A stretch of 64,000 nucleotides of DNA, taken from contig DATLXU010000136.1 of assembly GCA_035575515.1 (NCBI GenBank), positions 14,850 to 78,849 on the forward strand. Reading direction: 5' to 3'. Below are positions 26,578-50,784 of the stretch, piece after piece. This DNA is from Blastocatellia bacterium (GTDB taxonomy: Bacteria > Acidobacteriota > Blastocatellia > UBA7656). The notes under the pieces are model-generated. The model did no database searches, was not told the DNA's origin, and worked only from the letters and a program-made list of their open reading frames with translations. The position numbers and the translations under genes were made by a program. Numbering within the stretch: position 1 is the stretch's first letter; every line of letters begins with the position of its first letter.

Positions 26578-27090
26578 TCAATCTCCTTCGCGTCTCGCCA
26601 ACACCATCGCGCCAACGACTGCCATCAGTATCAAGACCGATGTTACTTCAAACGGCAGCAGGTAATCTGTAAACAGCGCCGTGCCGATATTCCACGTAGT
26701 GCCGACAGCCGTATCGGCCTGCTCAGCCGGAATCGAAGGAAACGCAATTTGCTTGTCGAGCGGCAGCGCGTAAAACATCTCGGCTATCAATAACCCCGCG
26801 AACGGAATTGCGAGGTAGCGAAGCCACTTGTGCTTCTCGATGTGCGGCACATCCTTCGGCTCGTTCAAGAGCATTATAACGAAGACGAACAGCACCATTA
26901 TCGCGCCCGCGTAGACGACGACCTGAATCGCCGCGATGAACTGCGCGTGCAGCGTCAGATAGAGCGCCGACAGCGACGCGAGCGTGACAATCAACGACAG
27001 CGCGCTGTAGAGCGGGTTGCGCTGAATCAATATGTTCAGCGCGCTCGCTACGGCGATGACTGCAAAGATGATGAAGAGAGTCTGTTCCAT
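26578..27090 (-). CDS. nuoJ: NADH-quinone oxidoreductase subunit J
   Basis: 170 aa, 5 TM, NuoJ/ND6-like. Confidence 0.85.
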   Translation of the reverse strand: MEQTLFIIFAVIAVASALNILIQRNPLYSALSLIVTLASLSALYLTLHAQFIAAIQVVVYAGAIMVLFVFVIMLLNEPKDVPHIEKHKWLRYLAIPFAGLLIAEMFYALPLDKQIAFPSIPAEQADTAVGTTWNIGTALFTDYLLPFEVTSVLILMAVVGAMVLARREGD

Positions 27091-41548: not shown

Positions 41549-43381
41549 ATGTCAACCAGACGAAAAAACAAACCGGCGCTTGAAGAACACGAAAAAGAAA
41601 AACAACGAGGCTCGCCGCGCGACCTGCTGAGACTTCTGGCTTACGCCCGCCCTTATCGTACCCGGCTCGCGCTTGCGCTTGTGAGCCTCATCATTGCAAG
41701 CGCGCTCGGACTTGCGTTCCCTCAAATTGTCCGGCTGTTGATTGATGCCTCATTCGTCGAGCGCGATGCGAGCAAGCTCAATCGCTATGCTGCATTCCTC
41801 ATCGGATTGTTCGCCTGCCAGGCGGCGTTCAGCTTCCTTCGCTCTTACCTGCTTTCCTATACCGGCGAGCGAATAGTGGCGGACGTGCGTACAGAGCTTT
41901 ATAGCCATCTCGTAAATCTTCCAATCGGATTTTATGCTAGTCGGCGCGTCGGGGAATTGACCTCGCGCCTTGCGTCTGACGTGAGTGTGATTCAAACGGT
42001 CACGACGGGCAGCATCACTGAGCTTCTACGACTGACCCTAATTCTAACGGGCGGCATCGCAATCATTGCAGTCACAAATCCGCGACTGACACTTCTGATG
42101 CTCGCAGTCGTTCCGGTCGTGATCCTCTCAGCAACATTTTATGGTCGCTATATTCGCCGCTTGAGCACTCGGGTTCAGGACAAACTTGCTGACGCGAACT
42201 CCGTGCTTGAAGAGGCGCTTTCCGCGATTCGCATAGTCCAATCCTTCGTCCGCGAAGACTACGAGCGCAAGCGTTACGGCGAGCGCATTCTTGAATCTCT
42301 TAGGATGGCCGTCAAACGCTCAGTCGCGGGCGCGGGCTTCATCGGCTTCATCATTCTTGTAGTCTATAGCGGCATCGTCGTAGTGCTGTGGTTCGGCAGC
42401 CGAATGGTTTTGTCGGGCGCGATGACCGCAGGCGAGTTGATTGCCTTCGTGCTCTACACGTTCGTCGTGAGCGGCGCAATAGGCGGAATGAGCGAACTCT
42501 ACGGACAATTTCAAAGCGCGATTGGAGCTACGCGCCGCGTATTTGAATTGCTCGATACCGAACCTGAAATCAAAGACCCCGAAAGTCCTCAGCCGCTTGA
42601 AACAGTCGCTGGCCGCGTCGAATTGATTGACGTGCATTTCACCTACCCGGACGAGCGCGGCGTCGAGGTTTTAAGAGGCGTGACGATACGGGCCGAGCCG
42701 GGAGAGATAATCGCGCTCGTTGGACCGAGCGGCGCGGGCAAATCAACGCTGGTCGCCCTAATCCCGCGCTTTTATGATGTCACGCGGGGCGCGATTTTGG
42801 TCGACGGCCACGACATAAGAACTGTCCGGCTTAAAGACCTCAGGCAATCCATCGGAATGGTGCCACAGGAAACTACGCTGTTCGGCGGGACTATCAGAGA
42901 GAATATCGCTTACGGAAACCTCGATGCGACTGACGACGAAATCGAAGCGGTAGCGCGAGCCGCGCATGCTCACGAATTCATAAAAGAATTTCCCGACGGC
43001 TATAACACTATAGTTGGCGAGCGCGGCGTGAAGCTGTCGGGCGGGCAGCGCCAGCGAATTGCAATCGCTCGCGCGCTCCTCAAAAATCCCGCAATATTGA
43101 TTCTCGATGAAGCGACAAGCTCGCTTGATTCGGAATCAGAGCGGCTCGTTCAGGATGCGCTCGAAACTTTAATGCGAGGCCGCACGACTTTCGTCATCGC
43201 TCACCGTCTTTCAACCGTTCGCCGCGCAGACAGAATCGTCGTGCTTGATGGCGGTTGTGTGATTGAAGAAGGCACGCACGAAGGACTGATTGCGAGAGGG
43301 GGATTGTATAAACAGCTTTACGAGATTCAATTTAGAGATTATCCGGCTTCGCCTATGACGAATATCTTAGACGTTGGCTGA
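41549..43381 (+). CDS. ABC transporter ATP-binding/permease protein (MsbA-like exporter)
   Basis: 6-TM exporter domain; Walker A GPSGAGKST, signature LSGGQRQRIAIARAL, Walker B ILILDEATS. Confidence 0.9.
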   Translation: MSTRRKNKPALEEHEKEKQRGSPRDLLRLLAYARPYRTRLALALVSLIIASALGLAFPQIVRLLIDASFVERDASKLNRYAAFLIGLFACQAAFSFLRSYLLSYTGERIVADVRTELYSHLVNLPIGFYASRRVGELTSRLASDVSVIQTVTTGSITELLRLTLILTGGIAIIAVTNPRLTLLMLAVVPVVILSATFYGRYIRRLSTRVQDKLADANSVLEEALSAIRIVQSFVREDYERKRYGERILESLRMAVKRSVAGAGFIGFIILVVYSGIVVVLWFGSRMVLSGAMTAGELIAFVLYTFVVSGAIGGMSELYGQFQSAIGATRRVFELLDTEPEIKDPESPQPLETVAGRVELIDVHFTYPDERGVEVLRGVTIRAEPGEIIALVGPSGAGKSTLVALIPRFYDVTRGAILVDGHDIRTVRLKDLRQSIGMVPQETTLFGGTIRENIAYGNLDATDDEIEAVARAAHAHEFIKEFPDGYNTIVGERGVKLSGGQRQRIAIARALLKNPAILILDEATSSLDSESERLVQDALETLMRGRTTFVIAHRLSTVRRADRIVVLDGGCVIEEGTHEGLIARGGLYKQLYEIQFRDYPASPMTNILDVG

Positions 43382-44157
43382 GGCGAGCCGCCTTCAGGCT
43401 CAAGCGTGATTGCCGCAAAGACAGGTTTGATGTTATTCGAGGGACCGGGAACTACGGCGACGACGCGGCCCGACTCGCTGGCCTTCATAGTGCCCGCGCT
43501 TATCTTCGCATCTTGGGTGACGAACCAAAGCTGATAAACCTTTCCGGCAGGAAGCGGAGGCAAATCCGCGTTGACTATCCAGCGGTTCGTCTGCACATCC
43601 CATAAGATTTCGCCCGATGCTTGTGGCGCACCTTCCTGCCCCGCCAGCTTTATCACGCGAGGCTGCGCTGCGGCGACGGTTGTCGAGGTTTGCGCTGCTT
43701 CTTCTTTGCTCTTATCAAGCGCGGCCTGAAGCGCGCGGCGGTCCGATTGCCACAGAAATACGCTCACGATAAAAGCAACAAATATTGAGGCCGCAATGGC
43801 CCAGGGGATGAATGCGCGCGCGGGCGCTGGTCGAGATGGTATTTGTCTTGTTAGGGTCGGGTGTTCAGGGAATCGCAGCACGTCGGCCTGTTGACCGATT
43901 ATTTGCGGCGATGTTTTAGCTTCGTTCGCAATGTTATTGATGAGCCGTTCGCGCAAGTTGGCAGGAGGCGACACGGGCGGCGCGGTCGAGCCAATTAATC
44001 CAACGACCTGCTCGAATTGATTGACTTCGATTTCACAAGCGGGACAGCCGTCGCGCAGGTGGCGCTCGAAGGCGCGAGCCTCGTGTTGAGAGAGCGCGCC
44101 CAGGACATATAGCGCGGCGGCCTCCTGGCTCTCCTCGTTTACTTCATCATGCCTCAA
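43339..44157 (-). CDS. anti-sigma factor, RskA-like (N-terminal Cys/His anti-sigma domain, TM helix, RskA-type periplasmic domain)
   Basis: ALYVLGALSQHEARAFERHLRDGCPAC at the N-terminus, then a TM helix, then a C-terminal domain beginning VYQLWFVTQDAKISAGTMK. Confidence 0.75.
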   Translation of the reverse strand: MRHDEVNEESQEAAALYVLGALSQHEARAFERHLRDGCPACEIEVNQFEQVVGLIGSTAPPVSPPANLRERLINNIANEAKTSPQIIGQQADVLRFPEHPTLTRQIPSRPAPARAFIPWAIAASIFVAFIVSVFLWQSDRRALQAALDKSKEEAAQTSTTVAAAQPRVIKLAGQEGAPQASGEILWDVQTNRWIVNADLPPLPAGKVYQLWFVTQDAKISAGTMKASESGRVVAVVPGPSNNIKPVFAAITLEPEGGSPQPTSKIFVIGEAG

Positions 44158-44184: not shown

Positions 44185-44793
44185 TCAGCGAGCTTCCAGA
44201 ACTTCGTAACGCTCCGGCGCTATCAACAAGAACAACGTCCCCTCAACCGTGTATGTCTCATCGTGAATGCTCCCCGCCGCCGCTCGGTGATAACCGCCCG
44301 GTCCGAGCCTCTCGCCGCAAACGTTGCAATCGCCTTCGAGAATATAAAACTGCTCGACTCCCGTATGGCGATGACGGGGCAGCCTCGCCCCCGGCTTCAT
44401 TCTCACAAGCGAAGTCGCAAGCCCGCTCTGCTTGTCCACAAACAGCAACTTGAACGAAACGCCTTCGCAAGCCTGCACCCACTGGCCTCCGTCTGCGTGA
44501 ATCGAAACGAACTCATCTGAGCTTGCCTGCCCATCAACTGACTGCGCGCTTGCCTCTTCAACATTAATTCTAGATAGCAGATCATCGCGCACCTTCAGAG
44601 ACGGCTTTGCTTCTACGGTTTCGTAGGAGAGCGCCTCAAGCGTCATCTCGAACGACTCAAGCTCTTCTCTACAAGCGTCGCAACCTTCGGCCAGATGCTC
44701 TTCAAACGTTTTCGCTTCATGCTGAGAGAGCGCGCCAAGCGCGTATAGCGCCGCCATCTCGGTCATCTCATCGGTCATTGCGAGATGCTTCAT
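44185..44793 (-). CDS. anti-sigma factor, ChrR-like (N-terminal anti-sigma domain plus C-terminal cupin)
   Basis: ALYALGALSQHEAKTFEEHLAEGCDAC at the N-terminus. The cupin-like C-terminus has HRHTGVEQFYILEGD. Confidence 0.75.
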   Translation of the reverse strand: MKHLAMTDEMTEMAALYALGALSQHEAKTFEEHLAEGCDACREELESFEMTLEALSYETVEAKPSLKVRDDLLSRINVEEASAQSVDGQASSDEFVSIHADGGQWVQACEGVSFKLLFVDKQSGLATSLVRMKPGARLPRHRHTGVEQFYILEGDCNVCGERLGPGGYHRAAAGSIHDETYTVEGTLFLLIAPERYEVLEAR

Positions 44794-45386
44794 AACTGAC
44801 CCTCCATGACGGGACGAAGCATCTCGCGCAGCTTTATCATTCCAAGCCGCGTGCGCGTCTTCACGGTGCCGAGCGGCTGACCCAGCTTCAGCGCAATTTC
44901 GCTGTGGCTGAGACCGCCGTAGTAGGCAAGCTCGATGACCTCGCGCTGTTCGGGCGACAACTGATCGAGCGCCGCCCGCACCAATCGCTGCCGCTCGGAA
45001 TAGACCGTAGCATCTTCCGGGCTGATCGAAGAGCTGCTCACTTCAGCAATGTTGTCAAGCGATTCTTTATTCTGCTCGTGCTTGCCTGCACGGAGCCTGT
45101 CAATTGCGCGGCTGCGCGCAATCGTCAGCAGCCAGGCGAGCGGCGCGCCTCGCTTCAAATCGTAAGTCGCGGCCTGCCGCCACACCTGCGTGTAAACGTC
45201 CAGCAGCACCTCTTCGGCGATTGACCGGTCGCTGACGATGCGCAGAATCAATCCGAACACCAGGCGACTGCTCGTGTCATAGAGCGCCGTCAGGGCAGAC
45301 TGATCCCCGTCGGCGACCTTTTCAATGAGCGCAATCAGATCGTGATCGCGCGTGCGAGGTGCTATTGAGTCTTGGGGTGATCCCAA
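44790..45386 (-). CDS. ECF-family RNA polymerase sigma factor
   Basis: Region 2 (EEVLLDVYTQVWRQA) and region 4 (LSHSEIALKLGQPLGTVKTR). Its stop overlaps the start of the downstream anti-sigma gene. Confidence 0.85.
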   Translation of the reverse strand: MGSPQDSIAPRTRDHDLIALIEKVADGDQSALTALYDTSSRLVFGLILRIVSDRSIAEEVLLDVYTQVWRQAATYDLKRGAPLAWLLTIARSRAIDRLRAGKHEQNKESLDNIAEVSSSSISPEDATVYSERQRLVRAALDQLSPEQREVIELAYYGGLSHSEIALKLGQPLGTVKTRTRLGMIKLREMLRPVMEGQL

Positions 45387-45979
45387 CCTTGTCTCTCCGT
45401 TTACCCGTTTGATTCTACGCCATCCCGCCTGCCGTCGGATTTACCGAGCGGCGCGAATAAATCGCGGCTTCTGGCAATTGCAACATTGCGGGAAGGTGAT
45501 AATACAACAAGAGCCTCGTCCCGCTAAAGTAAAATTTCTCGCCTCCGGCAAGACGCTGCTTATCGGCGTTTGCGGCTTTTCTTCATTGGCATTGTGATTG
45601 ATCATTGAGATTTGCAGTCAGTGTTTCACTAATCACCGTTTCAACTTCAACAGGCTCGTTAGAGAGCTTCGCCGATGTGCAGTTGACCAGTGGAGATTTG
45701 CCTGACCCGCAAAGCGCAAGCATGTAGTTTTAGTCCCCACCCAAGCAATTGGTGGAATGCTTTGATCATCGAAATAGTGGATCGTTTTGGCAGCACGTTT
45801 TTTTTTCTACCCCATCAAGGTAGCAATTCCGGCAATACAAAACCATAAGGTTCAATGGCATATCAATTGACTTGCGCAAGATGATGCTCTGGTTACTTTG
45901 CTATTCATAGAGGCTCAGAATCGGGATGCGCGAGACATGCAGTTTGACTCATATCTTTAACGGGCGAGCAGGAGGACTT

Positions 45980-48226
45980 ATGAGGAATAGAAGAGTTGTC
46001 ATGGGAATAATAGTGCTGTTGATCTTTGTTATGAATCTGAGCGTTGTGCAGTTTACTCCCCAGTCCACAGCCAGCGGTCAATTCAGTAGAATAGATGCAC
46101 AGTGGGATTTTGATGGCGACGACTTCGATCCGAGAGCGGCCAAGTTGCCCCGCGACCTGCGCGCGATGATTGATGCAAACCGTGGCAAGGACGCTGATCA
46201 GGTCCAGAATGTCATCGTGCAATCCGCAGGCACTCTGCTGGGCGATAGAGCAAGATCGGTCCAACAGCACGGCGGTTCTGTCAAACACTACTTCAAGAAC
46301 ATCAACGCCATGCTTGTAGAAATTCCTATAGCGCGTATCGAAGAGCTTGCATCTGAAGGCGACATCGAATTCATCACGCCAGACAGGGAAGTCATCTGTG
46401 CGATGGACGCCACAACCAAGTTGATAGGCGCAGATCAGTTGTTGCAACCCGGCGCAAGCACCTACGGCGGCCTTTACCCGGCAGTTGATGGAAGCGACGT
46501 TGCGGTTGCGGTCCTCGATTCCGGCATTGATTTGAATAATCCCGATTTCTATACATCGAAACAAACGAGCCGCGTGGTTGCCTTCAAAGATTTCGCTGGC
46601 GATTCGAAAGGCAAGATTCAAAAGGGCGCGTATGACGATTACGGGCATGGCACGCCTGTGGCTGGCGTGATTGCAGGCTCTGGCTCGGCTTCGCAGATGC
46701 GCGACAAAAAAGGCACGGAGTGGTATCCGGGCAATTATGGCGATTTCACAGGCGTTGCCCCTAATGCAAAGATAGTCTCGCTGAAAGTCATAGACGCGAA
46801 CGGCACTGGAAAAATCAGCAACGTCATTCAGGCGCTCGATTACGTCGTTGCAAACAAATCACGCTACAACATACGGGTCGTCAACCTTAGCCTCAGCGCG
46901 CCAGTGATGCAGAGCTACAAGATTGATCCACTTTGTCAGGCGGCAGAACGCTGCGTTGACAGCGGAATCGCAGTGGTCTGCTCTGCCGGAAATTTCGGCC
47001 ACAACGATGTCATCACTGCTTATGACAAAGACGGCAAGCCAATTTATCAAACCGTCTATGGCGGCATAGGCAGCCCTGCAAACGATCCGAAAGTCATCAC
47101 CGTTGGAGCAACTAAAGACCCTGCGCAATCGGTCCTGAGCTGGCCCGACAGCACAACTCCGCCGACCATTGATCCAAGTCCCGCTCCGTTGCGCCGCACC
47201 GATTTGCAGGTTGCCTCATACAGCTCGCGTGGCCCGACGCTCGTTGATGGAATCATCAAGCCCGATCTGGTCGCGCCGGGAACGAAAATCATAACAACAG
47301 CATCAAGAGAAGGGACGCTCACAGAGTTGACTTTGCCCAATGCGATTGTGCCGCCTTCATCCTCGTCGGCGACAACAAAGGTTTACTGTCAACTGACGGG
47401 CACGTCGCTATCGGCTCCGGTTGTGTCGGGCATCGCAGCCTTGATGATTCAGGCCAATCCAAAAATTTCGCCTCGGATGATAAAAGCGATTTTAAGGATG
47501 ACCTCAGAGCGATTGCCCTCGCTCGCTTCGGCGAGCGCGATAGAGAGAGTGCTGACGGAAGGAGCCGGGCTTGTGAACGCCCGGGCGGCTGTTCGGTTGG
47601 CTCAGAACCTGCGAGCGGATGTTGATGCTGCGCAGGCAGGTCAAAGCCTGCTTCGTCAGGGCGTGACGCTCGGCGGGTTGAGCCGTGACCTGACTTTGTT
47701 GATTAAGGACCAGAGCGGCAATGTTGTTGATCGCGGAGTCTTCAACAGCGGATTCCTCCTGGCAGACGGTTTCCTGCTCGCTGATGGTTTTCTTTTGGCA
47801 GACGGGTTTTTGCTGGCAGATGGTTTCCTGCTCGCAGATGGATTCCTGTTAGCCGACGATTTCCTTCTTGCTGATTCAACTGTTTGGCCCGACGGATTCC
47901 TGCTTGCCGACAGTTATGTTCAGACTAGCTGCCTGCAAAGCGTAAGCGGGTCGCTCGTGGCAAATGAATTGCCAATATCAAGAGCCGTTCGCGCCCGCAG
48001 CTTCTACGCCGACGGCATAGTCGCGTCAACCGGAAACGCGCATGGAAGGATGATCTTTTCGCATGAGTCTATGGTCTTGTGGGGAAACGCAGTGCTCGAC
48101 CCGAATTCTGTTTCCCTGTCCGCGCAGTCGGTCAATTCCGGCGCGCTAACATTGGATGACAATGCTCCGATAAGCGGCTTGCGATTCATCACAATCAACA
48201 GCCCCTTTTATCCGAAGCAACGATAA
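45980..48226 (+). CDS. secreted subtilisin-like (S8) serine protease with C-terminal GFLLAD hexapeptide repeat region
   Basis: An AGGAGGA RBS precedes the ATG at 45980, with a signal peptide. Catalytic residues are Asp (AVLDSGID), His (HGTPVAG) and Ser (GTSLSAPVVSG). GFLLAD x6, DFLLAD and GFLLAD repeats lie at nt 47749-47909. Confidence 0.85.
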   Translation: MRNRRVVMGIIVLLIFVMNLSVVQFTPQSTASGQFSRIDAQWDFDGDDFDPRAAKLPRDLRAMIDANRGKDADQVQNVIVQSAGTLLGDRARSVQQHGGSVKHYFKNINAMLVEIPIARIEELASEGDIEFITPDREVICAMDATTKLIGADQLLQPGASTYGGLYPAVDGSDVAVAVLDSGIDLNNPDFYTSKQTSRVVAFKDFAGDSKGKIQKGAYDDYGHGTPVAGVIAGSGSASQMRDKKGTEWYPGNYGDFTGVAPNAKIVSLKVIDANGTGKISNVIQALDYVVANKSRYNIRVVNLSLSAPVMQSYKIDPLCQAAERCVDSGIAVVCSAGNFGHNDVITAYDKDGKPIYQTVYGGIGSPANDPKVITVGATKDPAQSVLSWPDSTTPPTIDPSPAPLRRTDLQVASYSSRGPTLVDGIIKPDLVAPGTKIITTASREGTLTELTLPNAIVPPSSSSATTKVYCQLTGTSLSAPVVSGIAALMIQANPKISPRMIKAILRMTSERLPSLASASAIERVLTEGAGLVNARAAVRLAQNLRADVDAAQAGQSLLRQGVTLGGLSRDLTLLIKDQSGNVVDRGVFNSGFLLADGFLLADGFLLADGFLLADGFLLADGFLLADDFLLADSTVWPDGFLLADSYVQTSCLQSVSGSLVANELPISRAVRARSFYADGIVASTGNAHGRMIFSHESMVLWGNAVLDPNSVSLSAQSVNSGALTLDDNAPISGLRFITINSPFYPKQR

Positions 48227-48279: not shown

Positions 48280-50784
48280 ATGAGCGTGGAAGTCAACAGC
48301 AAACAGCGCCTCGCGCAGCCGTACATGCGAGTGGTGATCGCCATCGGCATGGCCGCGCTTGCCTGGTCGCTGTGGCGACTGAAGGCTTCCACGCTCGACT
48401 GGCGCTTTCTGGTTCTCGCTTCGATCACGGTAGCCACAGGCTCACGCTTCAACATCAACATTCCGCGATTCAAATCGAACGTATCCATCTCTGACGTGTT
48501 CATCTTCCTCGCGATGCTTCTCTTTGACGGAGAAGCTGCTATAGTGCTTGGCGCAATTGAAAGCTATTGCTCGTCTTTTCGCATCACGAAAAAACGACTG
48601 ACAAGGCTTTTCAACGCTGCGGCGATGGCCTGTTCGATGTCGCTTACCGTGTTGATGCTGCGAGTTGCTTTCGGCAACATCGTCGAGATTGCTTCGGGCG
48701 ATTTCCTGAAACTGGTAATGGCTACATGCGCAATGGCTGTCGTTCAATACTTCATCAACTCCTGCTCGATAGCAATTGCAGCGGCTTTGCGCGCGAATCA
48801 GCCCGTTTGGGATACCTGGAAGACGTACTATCTGTGGACAGCCATCAGTTATTTCAGCGCGGCGCTCGCCGCAGGCGTGATAGTCAGGCTGAGTTCGATT
48901 TATGGCCTATACACCTTTGTTGCGGCTGCTCCAATCTTAGCCATCGTCTATTTCACATACCAGACCTACCTCAAGAACATAGAGGCCTCAATGGCGCAGG
49001 CGGAGCTTGCCGAACGCCATCTGGCCGAGTTGCAGGAGAGCGAAGAGAGATTTCGCAGCGCTTTCGACCATGCGCCGATAGGCATAGCGATTGTCTCGCC
49101 CGAAGGCCGCTGGCTCAGCGTCAATCGCTCGCTTTGCGAAATCGTTGGCTACTCAGAAGAGGAATTGCTTGCAACTAATACTCAGGCGATCACTCACGAA
49201 TCAGACTTCGGGCAGTTCATGTCGAAGGTCAATGAAGTGCTTGATGGAAGAACGCTGACCGAGCAGATGGAGAAGCGCTATATCCACAAAGCCGGTTACG
49301 AGGTCTGGGTGATGGCGAGCATCTCGCTCATACGCGAGCCGCGCAGCAAGGCATCGAATCTTATATTTCAGGTTCAACACATCTCCGACCGAAAGCGGGC
49401 CGAGGAGCAACTGCGCCACGAAGCTCTCCACGACATGCTTACTGGACTGCCGAACCGCGCAAATTTCATGCAAAAACTGAGAGGCGCGCTTGATCGTGTG
49501 AAAGCAGGCGGGGATGCCGCTTTCGCAGTGTTGTTTCTGGACCTGGACCGATTCAAGGTAATCAATGACAGTCTCGGCCACATGGCCGGCGATCAGTTGT
49601 TGATAGGCATAGCGCGCAGGCTACGCAACTGCCTCAGGCCGGGCGATGTGGTTGCGAGGCTTGGCGGCGATGAGTTCACTATTCTGCTCAACAACATTAA
49701 GGACAAGAGCGACGCTGAGCATGTCGCCGACCGCGTTCAGAGAATGATTTCTCAACCGTTCACGCTCGGCGGCTACGAAACAAGCACAACCGTCAGCATA
49801 GGCATCGCCTTTCCGAGCCCAGAATATCAGCAGGCCGAAGATTTGCTCCGCGATGCCGACACGGCAATGTATCAGGCCAAATCTCTTGGCAAGGCCCAGT
49901 TTGTGATCTTCGATAAGAAGATGCACACGCACGCGATGAGCATTATGCAAATAGAGTCTGACCTGCGCCGCTCCATTGACCGCCATGAGTTTCTTATCCA
50001 TTACCAGCCGATAATCTCACTTCAAAATGGAGTGCTGGCAGGATTCGAGGCTCTGATTCGCTGGCGGCATCCGGAGCGTGGGCTTATCTCTCCATCTGAT
50101 TTCATACCAGTGGCGGAAGAGACAGGTTTGATAGTTCCGATAGGCGAGTGGGTCTTAAAAGAATCTTGCAGGCAGATGCGTCGGTGGCAGAAGAGTTTTA
50201 ATTCAAGCCCGCTATTTATCAGCGTCAACCTTTCGAGCAAGCAGTTTGCGCACTCAACTTTGCTTGAACAAATTGTCGAGACACTCGACGCCACGGGTCT
50301 TGACCCGTGCTCGCTCAAGTTAGAGATAACCGAAAGCGTTGTGATGCAGAACATCGAAGTCGCAACAGGCATGCTCGAACACCTGCGCTCTATCGGCGTG
50401 CAACTGAGCATTGATGATTTCGGCACAGGCTATTCGTCTTTGAGTTATCTCTATCGCCTGCCGATTGACACGCTGAAGATTGATCGCTCATTTATCAGCC
50501 ACTTGTCTGGCAATAACGAAAACCGCGAGATAGTGCGAACGATCATCACTCTCGCTAAAACTCTCGGAATGGGCGTCGTAGCAGAAGGGATCGAGACGCA
50601 GGATCAACTCGACTTGCTCAAAAACCTAAAATGTGACTACGGGCAGGGATACCTGTATTCAAAACCGCTCGAAGCCAATGCTGCTGAACAACTGATAGCC
50701 GCGATGCAGTCTCAGGTGGCCATTTCCACGGAAATTTCTGGGGAAGTATTCCTGGGTCCACTCAAAACCGAGTACAGGATGTGA
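48280..50784 (+). CDS. membrane-anchored PAS-GGDEF-EAL protein (diguanylate cyclase/phosphodiesterase)
   Basis: About 230 aa of polytopic N-terminus, then a PAS domain, GGDEF (RLGGDEFTIL) and EAL (EALIRW, DDFGTGYSSL) motifs, all intact. Confidence 0.9.
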   Translation: MSVEVNSKQRLAQPYMRVVIAIGMAALAWSLWRLKASTLDWRFLVLASITVATGSRFNINIPRFKSNVSISDVFIFLAMLLFDGEAAIVLGAIESYCSSFRITKKRLTRLFNAAAMACSMSLTVLMLRVAFGNIVEIASGDFLKLVMATCAMAVVQYFINSCSIAIAAALRANQPVWDTWKTYYLWTAISYFSAALAAGVIVRLSSIYGLYTFVAAAPILAIVYFTYQTYLKNIEASMAQAELAERHLAELQESEERFRSAFDHAPIGIAIVSPEGRWLSVNRSLCEIVGYSEEELLATNTQAITHESDFGQFMSKVNEVLDGRTLTEQMEKRYIHKAGYEVWVMASISLIREPRSKASNLIFQVQHISDRKRAEEQLRHEALHDMLTGLPNRANFMQKLRGALDRVKAGGDAAFAVLFLDLDRFKVINDSLGHMAGDQLLIGIARRLRNCLRPGDVVARLGGDEFTILLNNIKDKSDAEHVADRVQRMISQPFTLGGYETSTTVSIGIAFPSPEYQQAEDLLRDADTAMYQAKSLGKAQFVIFDKKMHTHAMSIMQIESDLRRSIDRHEFLIHYQPIISLQNGVLAGFEALIRWRHPERGLISPSDFIPVAEETGLIVPIGEWVLKESCRQMRRWQKSFNSSPLFISVNLSSKQFAHSTLLEQIVETLDATGLDPCSLKLEITESVVMQNIEVATGMLEHLRSIGVQLSIDDFGTGYSSLSYLYRLPIDTLKIDRSFISHLSGNNENREIVRTIITLAKTLGMGVVAEGIETQDQLDLLKNLKCDYGQGYLYSKPLEANAAEQLIAAMQSQVAISTEISGEVFLGPLKTEYRM

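Follow-up and report, generated by a model that had tools for sequence, protein, structure and literature searches.

In a stretch of 64,000 nucleotides from a Blastocatellia bacterium (contig DATLXU010000136.1 of assembly GCA_035575515.1; the whole stretch is called the window below), the gene of an S8 peptidase encodes nine tandem hexapeptides, most of them GFLLAD, behind the catalytic domain. We found that this repeat is old and constrained at the peptide level, and that it is not a recent product of slippage. Our reading of the array, to which we give a probability of roughly 45%, is that of a short beta-solenoid of the left-handed beta-helix (LbH) type, or derived from that type, which would act as a stalk or spacer and/or as a self-association module between the catalytic and C-terminal domains; the fold, its handedness, oligomerization, and export are what we infer here.

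In this proposal, each hexad would contribute a short beta-strand, F-L-L-A, and a tight turn at D-G, and the nine hexads together would make up about three coils of a narrow, LbH-related beta-solenoid. Placed between the catalytic domain and a conserved C-terminal domain of 104 amino acids (aa), the solenoid would be a rigid spacer of variable length, and/or would offer a self-association surface for the exported enzyme, and would have no part in catalysis. The GFLLAD array would be one copy of an old module with the hexad G - variable - aliphatic - aliphatic - small - D, which probably works most like the LbH hexapeptide repeat and is derived from it.

Array structure and codon variation

The array covers residues 609-662 and is in frame with the open reading frame (ORF) 45926..48226. 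It has the following features.

47750..47911, plus strand: hexapeptide array of nine hexads, seen in the sequence, by Tandem Repeats Finder, and as homologous arrays in 98/120 relatives
47876..47893, plus strand: divergent penultimate hexad STVWPD, whose counterpart G-S-[VI]-W-P-x is penultimate in 8/8 orthologue arrays examined

Each of the nine units is 18 nt long. GFLLAD is encoded seven times, by units 1-6 and by unit 9; DFLLAD comes from unit 7 and STVWPD from unit 8. Tandem Repeats Finder reported a period of 18 with 5.3 copies, 74% matches, and a score of 101 for this DNA. The first-pass annotation, which was made from the sequence, had counted eight GFLLAD units at 47749-47909; the count was roughly right, with seven exact units and one DFLLAD, and the coordinates were off by 1-2 nt. 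Seven identical hexapeptides in register are beyond chance, and a period-6 scan found no comparable array in any other ORF of the 64-kb window. The same scan also flagged an Arg/Glu/Gln-rich stretch, DDDLNRRDELRVQRQIERRQRRERDNQRQRA, at 26914-27006 on the plus strand, which we take for a charged segment, low in complexity or coiled, that has nothing to do with the GFLLAD array. The minus strand is open across the array (47734-47892) and would encode a period-6 RKPSAS-like peptide; this frame lies in no ORF with homologues, and we regard it as a by-product of the repeat and not as a gene.

At the DNA level, the seven identical hexads had a mean pairwise nucleotide identity of 0.749 (range 0.61-0.94), and 4.05 of 6 codons differed. 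Independent draws from the codon usage of the rest of the protease gene gave an identity of 0.764 +/- 0.024 and 3.70 +/- 0.34 differing codons for the same seven hexads, and in the in-register test the same-codon fraction of the query array was 0.331, against 0.385 +/- 0.047 in the simulation. Because the identity of the units matches that of independent codon draws, the repeat must be old and held at the level of the peptide, and the synonymous sites are fully randomized between the GFLLAD units. The heavy synonymous variation that had been noticed at first sight was thus confirmed, and the view that selection acts on the peptide and that recent slippage does not account for the repeat was borne out by both codon tests. 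In the arrays of four relatives, the observed same-codon fraction and the simulated mean were 0.310 and 0.340 (P0004), 0.500 and 0.452 (P0003), 0.525 and 0.627 (P0013), and 0.618 and 0.466 (P0002), and there was no clear DNA trace of recent duplication in any of these four arrays or in the query array.

These results also bear on the idea that the array lacks a selected function and arose recently by slippage or duplication, or as an artefact of assembly. Nothing beyond the tandem layout favors this idea, and both the codon analysis and the orthologues refute it, so that we leave it practically no chance: the synonymous sites are randomized between units, and independent assemblies from JGI, NCBI, and ENA show this architecture, SVWP hexad included, at 50-55% protein identity. 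A slippage-prone contingency locus would likewise be improbable, because the DNA units have diverged.

Codon choice within the array differed from that of the rest of the gene. GGC was absent from the 7 array Gly codons but made up 37/61 of those elsewhere in the gene (Fisher p = 0.0027), and the GC content at third codon positions was 0.50 in the array and 0.59 elsewhere in the protease gene. The array of P0013 also moves to minor codons (Leu TTG 14/27 vs 3/38), and no such shift was seen in the arrays of the orthologues P0002, P0003, and P0004. Selection for diverse DNA in the arrays that are most uniform may lie behind the shift, but two cases are too few to tell.

Distribution among homologues

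The module is not peculiar to this protein, as it had seemed at first. A lag-6 similarity scan of the 120 best homologues detected a period-6 array of 5-26 hexads in 98 of them, placed as in the query immediately behind the S8 domain. The 120 proteins come mostly from metagenome-assembled genomes (MAGs) of Blastocatellia and Pyrinomonadaceae, and the best of them are 52-55% identical to the query and are named as Blastocatellia, Pyrinomonadaceae, or Acidobacteria MAG proteins. The remaining 22 are mostly truncated fragments or have very short arrays or variant repeats; the shortest array noted, that of P0007, has about 3 hexads, which gives an overall range of 3 to 26. A survey of relatives for copy number, which the first-pass annotation had suggested, thus shows that the number of hexads does vary.

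The family consensus hexad is G-[VITFH]-[LIV]-[LMV]-[SATG]-D. Over 959 hexads from 95 proteins, the composition in percent was G75 at position 1; V29, I12, T9, G8, S6, A6, H6, R5, F5, and L5 at position 2; L51, I17, V13, and M7 at position 3; L45, M18, V10, and I9 at position 4; S29, A20, T15, and G15 at position 5; and D66, S12, and N10 at position 6. Variation is thus concentrated at position 2, and constraint at the D-G junction and at both aliphatic positions.

Within the query clade, the layout is kept hexad by hexad. Individual hexads are orthologous across proteins that are 52-55% identical, because the G-S-[VI]-W-P-x unit is penultimate in each of the eight orthologue arrays that we inspected, and most arrays of the clade have a His-containing hexad in fifth place. 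Because the layout is conserved in this way, the nine-hexad architecture is older than the split of these orthologues. The sole peculiarity of the query within its clade is Phe at position 2 in every regular hexad. Three orthologue arrays, compared unedited, are 73, 63, and 56% identical to the query array; over their full length, the proteins reach 52-53%.

An exhaustive HMMER scan of residues 559-766 against 1.84 billion representative proteins gave 102 matches at E <= 1e-3, most of them found through the array. S8 peptidases made up 17 of the 38 array-found proteins that were long enough to judge, and each of the other families occurred at most 3 times. The non-S8 matches were scattered (CarboxypepD_reg, FecR, VanY, three FapA beta-solenoid proteins, a phage tail fibre, and a bactofilin), and several of them look like unrelated period-6 low-complexity sequence. 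By these matches, the array module is found mainly on S8 peptidases. Trp-containing hexads (SVLWGD/GVLWGD, GFVWSD/AFVWSD, and GYLWTD) stand at the same position on other S8 peptidases, namely P0040, P0088, P0109, P0189, and P0190, and because P0190 is named from a Pseudomonadota MAG, the architecture of S8 domain plus hexapeptide array is not confined to Acidobacteriota. A literature search that did not cover all journals found no paper on hexapeptide arrays on subtilases and nothing relevant on GFLLAD or on an LbH combined with a secreted protease.

Relation to the left-handed beta-helix

The link between the array and the LbH comes through its relatives. Against Pfam Hexapep (PF00132, gathering score 27), P0078 reached 37.9 bits and P0024 28.3 bits, and other relatives gave sub-threshold matches to LbH_EIF2B and GMPPB_C. 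The array of P0013 and a profile of Val/Ile-type arrays (A4) matched only LbH proteins in the PDB, with E values from 7e-5 to 6e-3 (among them VioB, QdtC, LpxD, maltose O-acetyltransferase, and eIF2B-epsilon). The profile of the query clade (A3) aligned with A4 at an hhalign probability of 98.4%. In the PDB, A3 itself had two matches, both of them LbH proteins and neither significant: 3ixc at E 0.64, and the gamma-carbonic anhydrase 3r1w at E 1.4, in which a 'CSVWP' stretch of the beta-helix was aligned with the SVWP hexad. Read in the register L-A-D-G-F-L, the repeat fits the LbH consensus [LIV]-[GAED]-x-x-[STAV]-x at 5/6 positions. The low-confidence AlphaFold2 (AF2) model of the query contains short strands at residues 617/623, 635/641, and 653/659, and their 6-residue spacing and 18-residue period may be a weak hint of a three-sided coil; 18-residue patterns also occur in orthologues of the query clade, for example L-H-F-L-H-F at position 2 in P0121. 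Taken together, the repeat is linked by sequence to LbH-type repeats through its relatives. A profile search for a known repeat family, proposed earlier as a check and, in case of a match to a well-described one, as a refutation, thus succeeded for the relatives P0078 and P0024 and failed for the query array and for 12 arrays of its clade.

Several observations weigh against this reading. The hhalign probability of 98.4% has to be discounted, as composition inflates the score between two low-complexity repeat profiles. Neither the query array nor any of the clade arrays (12/12) has a Hexapep or LbH Pfam match, even at E <= 10, and LbH-family matches at E < 1e-3 occur in just 4-5/61 homologues, with Hexapep itself matched in 4. 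The one consensus position that fails is [STAV], which is Phe in all eight FLLAD hexads of the query; in related clades, the residue that is small in the LbH is His, Arg, Tyr, or Trp, which would be hard to fit into a canonical core. Because both the profile test and the [STAV] position fail, we would not count the query array among the members of Pfam Hexapep. AF2 usually models genuine LbH domains with confidence, and the predicted local distance difference test (pLDDT) score was 28-40 in the query array and 25-47 in the array of P0013, a relative with 26 hexads. The structure prediction of the array region that had been suggested for this DNA consequently gave no readable fold, with pLDDT <50 in the query and again in P0013. 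Cross-array identity peaked at lag 12 with 0.534 (lag 6, 0.468; lag 18, 0.453), and lag 12 was the best lag in 27/45 arrays; such an alternation is not explained by an 18-residue three-sided coil. Finally, P0016 consists at residues of about 545-700 mostly of 7-residue units, GILMGGD, among ordinary hexads, and therefore the turn tolerates an extra Gly in every unit; such a coil would not lead one to expect heptads either.

The period itself is sharp, as identity fell to 0.09 at lag 5 from 0.47 at lag 6. Alternating hexad pairs such as GIMLSD/GMVLGD, GISMSE/GILLAD, and GYVLAN/GWMMAD were observed in P0013, P0030, P0033, P0045, P0063, P0113, and others. In P0013, this 12-residue alternation is selected, because similarity at the DNA level is absent.

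The lag-12 pattern is the starting point of another explanation, in which the array is a repeated beta structure other than the LbH, for instance a solenoid with two or four sides, or stacked D-G beta-hairpins. Its stacked Asp ladder might need Ca2+ for folding, like RTX beta-rolls, and the array would be unfolded in the cell and would fold only after export. This explanation, which we regard as unlikely, draws on the 12-residue super-period that dominates the arrays of relatives, and on the fact that the super-period of P0013 goes without DNA similarity (0.525 vs 0.627 expected), which suggests that selection maintains two hexad environments in alternation. It also accounts for D (66%) and G (75%) as the most conserved hexad positions, for bulky or charged residues at the position that is small in the LbH, and for the 7-residue variant, and the low AF2 confidence for an isolated chain would be in keeping with a fold that needs a ligand or partner. 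However, all significant links from the array to solved structures, made via relatives, lead to LbH proteins, orthologues of the query clade such as P0121 show 18-residue patterns, no Pfam match to HemolysinCabind (RTX) or another Ca-binding repeat was found, and the binding of Ca2+ is purely our supposition. A bolder form of the same thought, which we consider unlikely, is that the G-h-h-h-s-D arrays are a distinct module outside the canonical LbH, carried mainly by subtilases: a narrow solenoid or hairpin stack with a 12-residue unit of two hexads and an Asp ladder, which would fold only on export, on the binding of Ca2+, or on self-association and would set the oligomeric state or surface attachment of a large group of extracellular proteases in soil Acidobacteriota. 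In that case, selection would keep the peptide units almost identical, with fully scrambled codons.

The low AF2 confidence, together with a hexad in which four of six residues are hydrophobic and one carries a negative charge, could also be read as a hydrophobic-acidic sticky segment without a defined globular fold, which would bind the cell envelope, hydrophobic substrates, or itself in the form of fibrils or aggregates. There is a parallel in the extracellular S8 peptidase Vpr of Bacillus, which forms enzymatically active fibrils (PMC10657474; PDB 8jmw, which was among our Foldseek matches), but the Vpr paper (PMC10657474) mentions no repeat or C-terminal element, and the parallel is a speculative lead. 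Four-residue strands would be too short to span a membrane, and an ordered repeat is suggested by the strictness of the six-residue register and the conservation of the D-G turns; for this protein, a sticky segment is therefore improbable in our view. Among the options that the first-pass annotation had listed, the beta-solenoid comes out as the most plausible, and no positive support was found for a membrane anchor or an inhibitory propeptide-like segment.

Host protease and C-terminal domain

The features of the protein that carries the array are given below; residue numbers count from the first ATG.

45926..48226, plus strand: S8 peptidase ORF, 766 aa from the first ATG, coordinates including the stop codon
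45980..46042, plus strand: basic and hydrophobic N-terminal segment, residues 19-39, MRNRRVVMGIIVLLIFVMNLS..., from the sequence and as a helix in AF2
46202..46381, plus strand: I9-like N-terminal propeptide, residues about 93-152, from AF2, Foldseek, and Pfam in homologues
46490..47515, plus strand: predicted subtilase catalytic domain, residues 189-530, from Pfam Peptidase_S8
47516..47749, plus strand: post-catalytic linker subdomain that leads into the array, residues 531-608, from AF2
47912..48223, plus strand: C-terminal domain of 104 aa, residues 663-766, kept in P0001-P0007, P0121, and P0122

The host is an S8 protease, as had been recognized from the beginning. Pfam Peptidase_S8 (PF00082) matched residues 189-530 with 171.7 bits against a cutoff of 21.8 (E 2.9e-50), and the catalytic residues D198, H241, and S494 and the oxyanion residue N356 are invariant columns in an alignment of 61 sequences (A1); the triad has the order Asp-His-Ser, which is the subtilase order. 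The AF2 model of the query, built on a 61-sequence alignment, has pLDDT values of mostly 70-98 over residues 70-600. In this model, the propeptide has the topology beta-alpha-beta-beta-alpha-beta (pLDDT 77-93), and Pfam Inhibitor_I9 matched in 4/61 homologues. The linker subdomain has helices at 538-545 and 552-560 and strands at 591-594 and 600-604, with pLDDT of about 72-94 until ~600. The Foldseek comparison was limited to the catalytic part including the propeptide, as confidence in the array model is too low; its top solved match was ProN-Tk-SP (3afg; E 1.6e-31 over 491 columns, N-terminal propeptide included), and pro-subtilisin E (3whi) matched at E 4.4e-24. A phmmer search also matched Tk-SP (3afg) at E 5.6e-33. 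The model thus predicts an S8 peptidase with a subtilisin fold and an I9-type propeptide.

Translation probably begins not at 45926 but at the next in-frame ATG, at 45980, which gives a protein of 748 aa (MRNRRVV...), as a strong Shine-Dalgarno sequence, AGGAGG, lies 5 nt upstream of that ATG (positions 45968-45982). AF2 places a single helix at residues 19-39, followed by a low-confidence linker. This segment is a probable Sec signal peptide or signal anchor, and from such a signal-like N-terminus the protease is probably exported.

The C-terminal domain has the conserved motifs FYADG, W-x-x-A-V-L-D-P, DDxxP-I-x-G, and a terminal SP[FY]YP[KR]. It had no sequence match in Pfam or the PDB, and a PDB sequence search with the C-terminal 172 aa of the query gave nothing at E <= 10. 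A word-indexed homology search with the C-terminal 178 aa returned 4 matches, a low number that is probably due to saturation with repeat words and the composition correction of HMMER. In AF2, residues 663-711 had pLDDT <50, and most of 712-766, including the motif segments, had 59-82. Two recurring tail types follow the arrays of relatives, neither with a Pfam family. The first, which is that of the query, has ~70-120 aa with W-x-x-[NA]-[LV]-[LM]-D-[PQ], G-D-[DE]-A-P, and a terminal [SH]-P-[LYF]-[YF]-P-[RK]. The second is short, Q-[AS]-x(5)-G-D-[DN]-T-x-x-M, and is at times extended to ...D-T-G-[VI]-D-[CY]-L-x-Y or trailed by an FN3 domain.

C-terminal pro-sequences are known in some secreted subtilases, such as aqualysin I. 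The array and the C-terminal domain could likewise be a C-terminal pro-segment for export, folding, or latency that is cut off on maturation. Arrays of 3 to 26 hexads occur with the same catalytic domain, which would make their exact length dispensable for catalysis, and the last about 55 residues, with conserved motifs and pLDDT of 59-82, would be compatible with a tail that docks on the catalytic domain. However, no cleavage site was identified, and the strong peptide conservation at all six positions and the orthology of the hexads exceed the needs of a disposable spacer. We therefore hold a removable pro-segment to be quite unlikely as the explanation of the array; it would be compatible with a solenoid of either fold rather than opposed to it.

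Gene surroundings and significance

The genes around the protease are the following.

43339-44157, minus strand: RskA-type anti-sigma factor, upstream and divergent
44185-44793, minus strand: ChrR-type cupin anti-sigma factor, upstream and divergent
44790-45386, minus strand: extracytoplasmic function (ECF) sigma factor, upstream and divergent from the protease
48280-50784, plus strand: PAS-GGDEF-EAL protein, downstream of the protease on the same strand

No conserved operon is common to the window and two orthologue loci (L002 and L003). A PAS-GGDEF-EAL gene also adjoins the orthologue P0004 (in L002), in the other orientation. We treat the protease as a stand-alone gene.

Blastocatellia and Pyrinomonadaceae are abundant soil Acidobacteriota, and secreted proteases take part in the turnover of protein in soil. 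A large share of the AprX-like S8 peptidases of these groups carry a hexapeptide array, most of them unannotated by Pfam, and the combination of S8 domain and hexapeptide array is thus widespread and has no description in the literature that we found. If it were known whether the array is an oligomerization stalk, a unit that folds with Ca2+, or a pro-segment that is removed, the export, stabilization, or localization of these enzymes could be explained. The array is also a clean natural case of identical peptide repeats under selection with randomized synonymous sites, which is useful for studies of repeat evolution and for the design of genetically stable repeat proteins. The wider significance is modest, as hexapeptide beta-helix repeats and C-terminal accessory domains of subtilases are both well-known classes.

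Comparison with known systems

The RTX nonapeptide repeats (GGxGxDxUx beta-roll) of serralysin-type metalloproteases and toxins resemble the array as short Gly/Asp tandem repeats that stand C-terminal to the catalytic domain of an exported protease, with one conserved Asp per turn, and folding after export is conceivable for both. However, the period is 6 and not 9, the query array has no GGxGxD motif, and the query has an N-terminal signal-like segment instead of a C-terminal type I secretion signal. RTX repeats (HemolysinCabind, PF00353) were rejected on the period of 6 and on the lack of a match with the whole protein at E <= 1 or with the array at E <= 10.

Tk-SP of Thermococcus kodakarensis (3afg), the closest solved structure, shares with the query the order of N-terminal propeptide, S8 domain, and C-terminal accessory domain. 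The similarity is nevertheless limited to the propeptide and the catalytic domain. The accessory domain of Tk-SP is a beta-jelly roll and not a tandem hexapeptide array.

Pentapeptide repeats (PF00805) and bactofilin beta-helices are likewise short tandem repeats that form narrow beta-solenoids with hydrophobic cores, and one array-matched protein of the representative search also matched Pfam Bactofilin. However, pentapeptide repeats have a period of 5 and four sides per coil, and bactofilin is a right-handed cytoplasmic polymer. The pentapeptide repeat, A(D/N)LXX, was rejected as a candidate, with the lag-5 identity of 0.09 and no Pfam match for the query, and the Bactofilin family in Pfam did not match the query either.

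The LbH hexapeptide repeat (PF00132), known from LpxA/LpxD, sugar N-/O-acetyltransferases, gamma-carbonic anhydrases, and eIF2B-epsilon, differs from the array in several respects: the query clade has no Pfam match and has Phe or His where the LbH needs a small residue, the query units vary far less than those of LbH domains in enzymes, the array forms no acyltransferase or carbonic-anhydrase active site at a trimer interface but is attached to a protease that is apparently exported, and it is not confidently modelled by AF2. On the other side, the S-V-W-P unit is also found inside the beta-helices of gamma-carbonic anhydrases, in a match that is not significant, the Val/Ile-rich arrays of S8 paralogues score above the Pfam threshold and find only LbH proteins in the PDB, and the period of six residues is the same in both.

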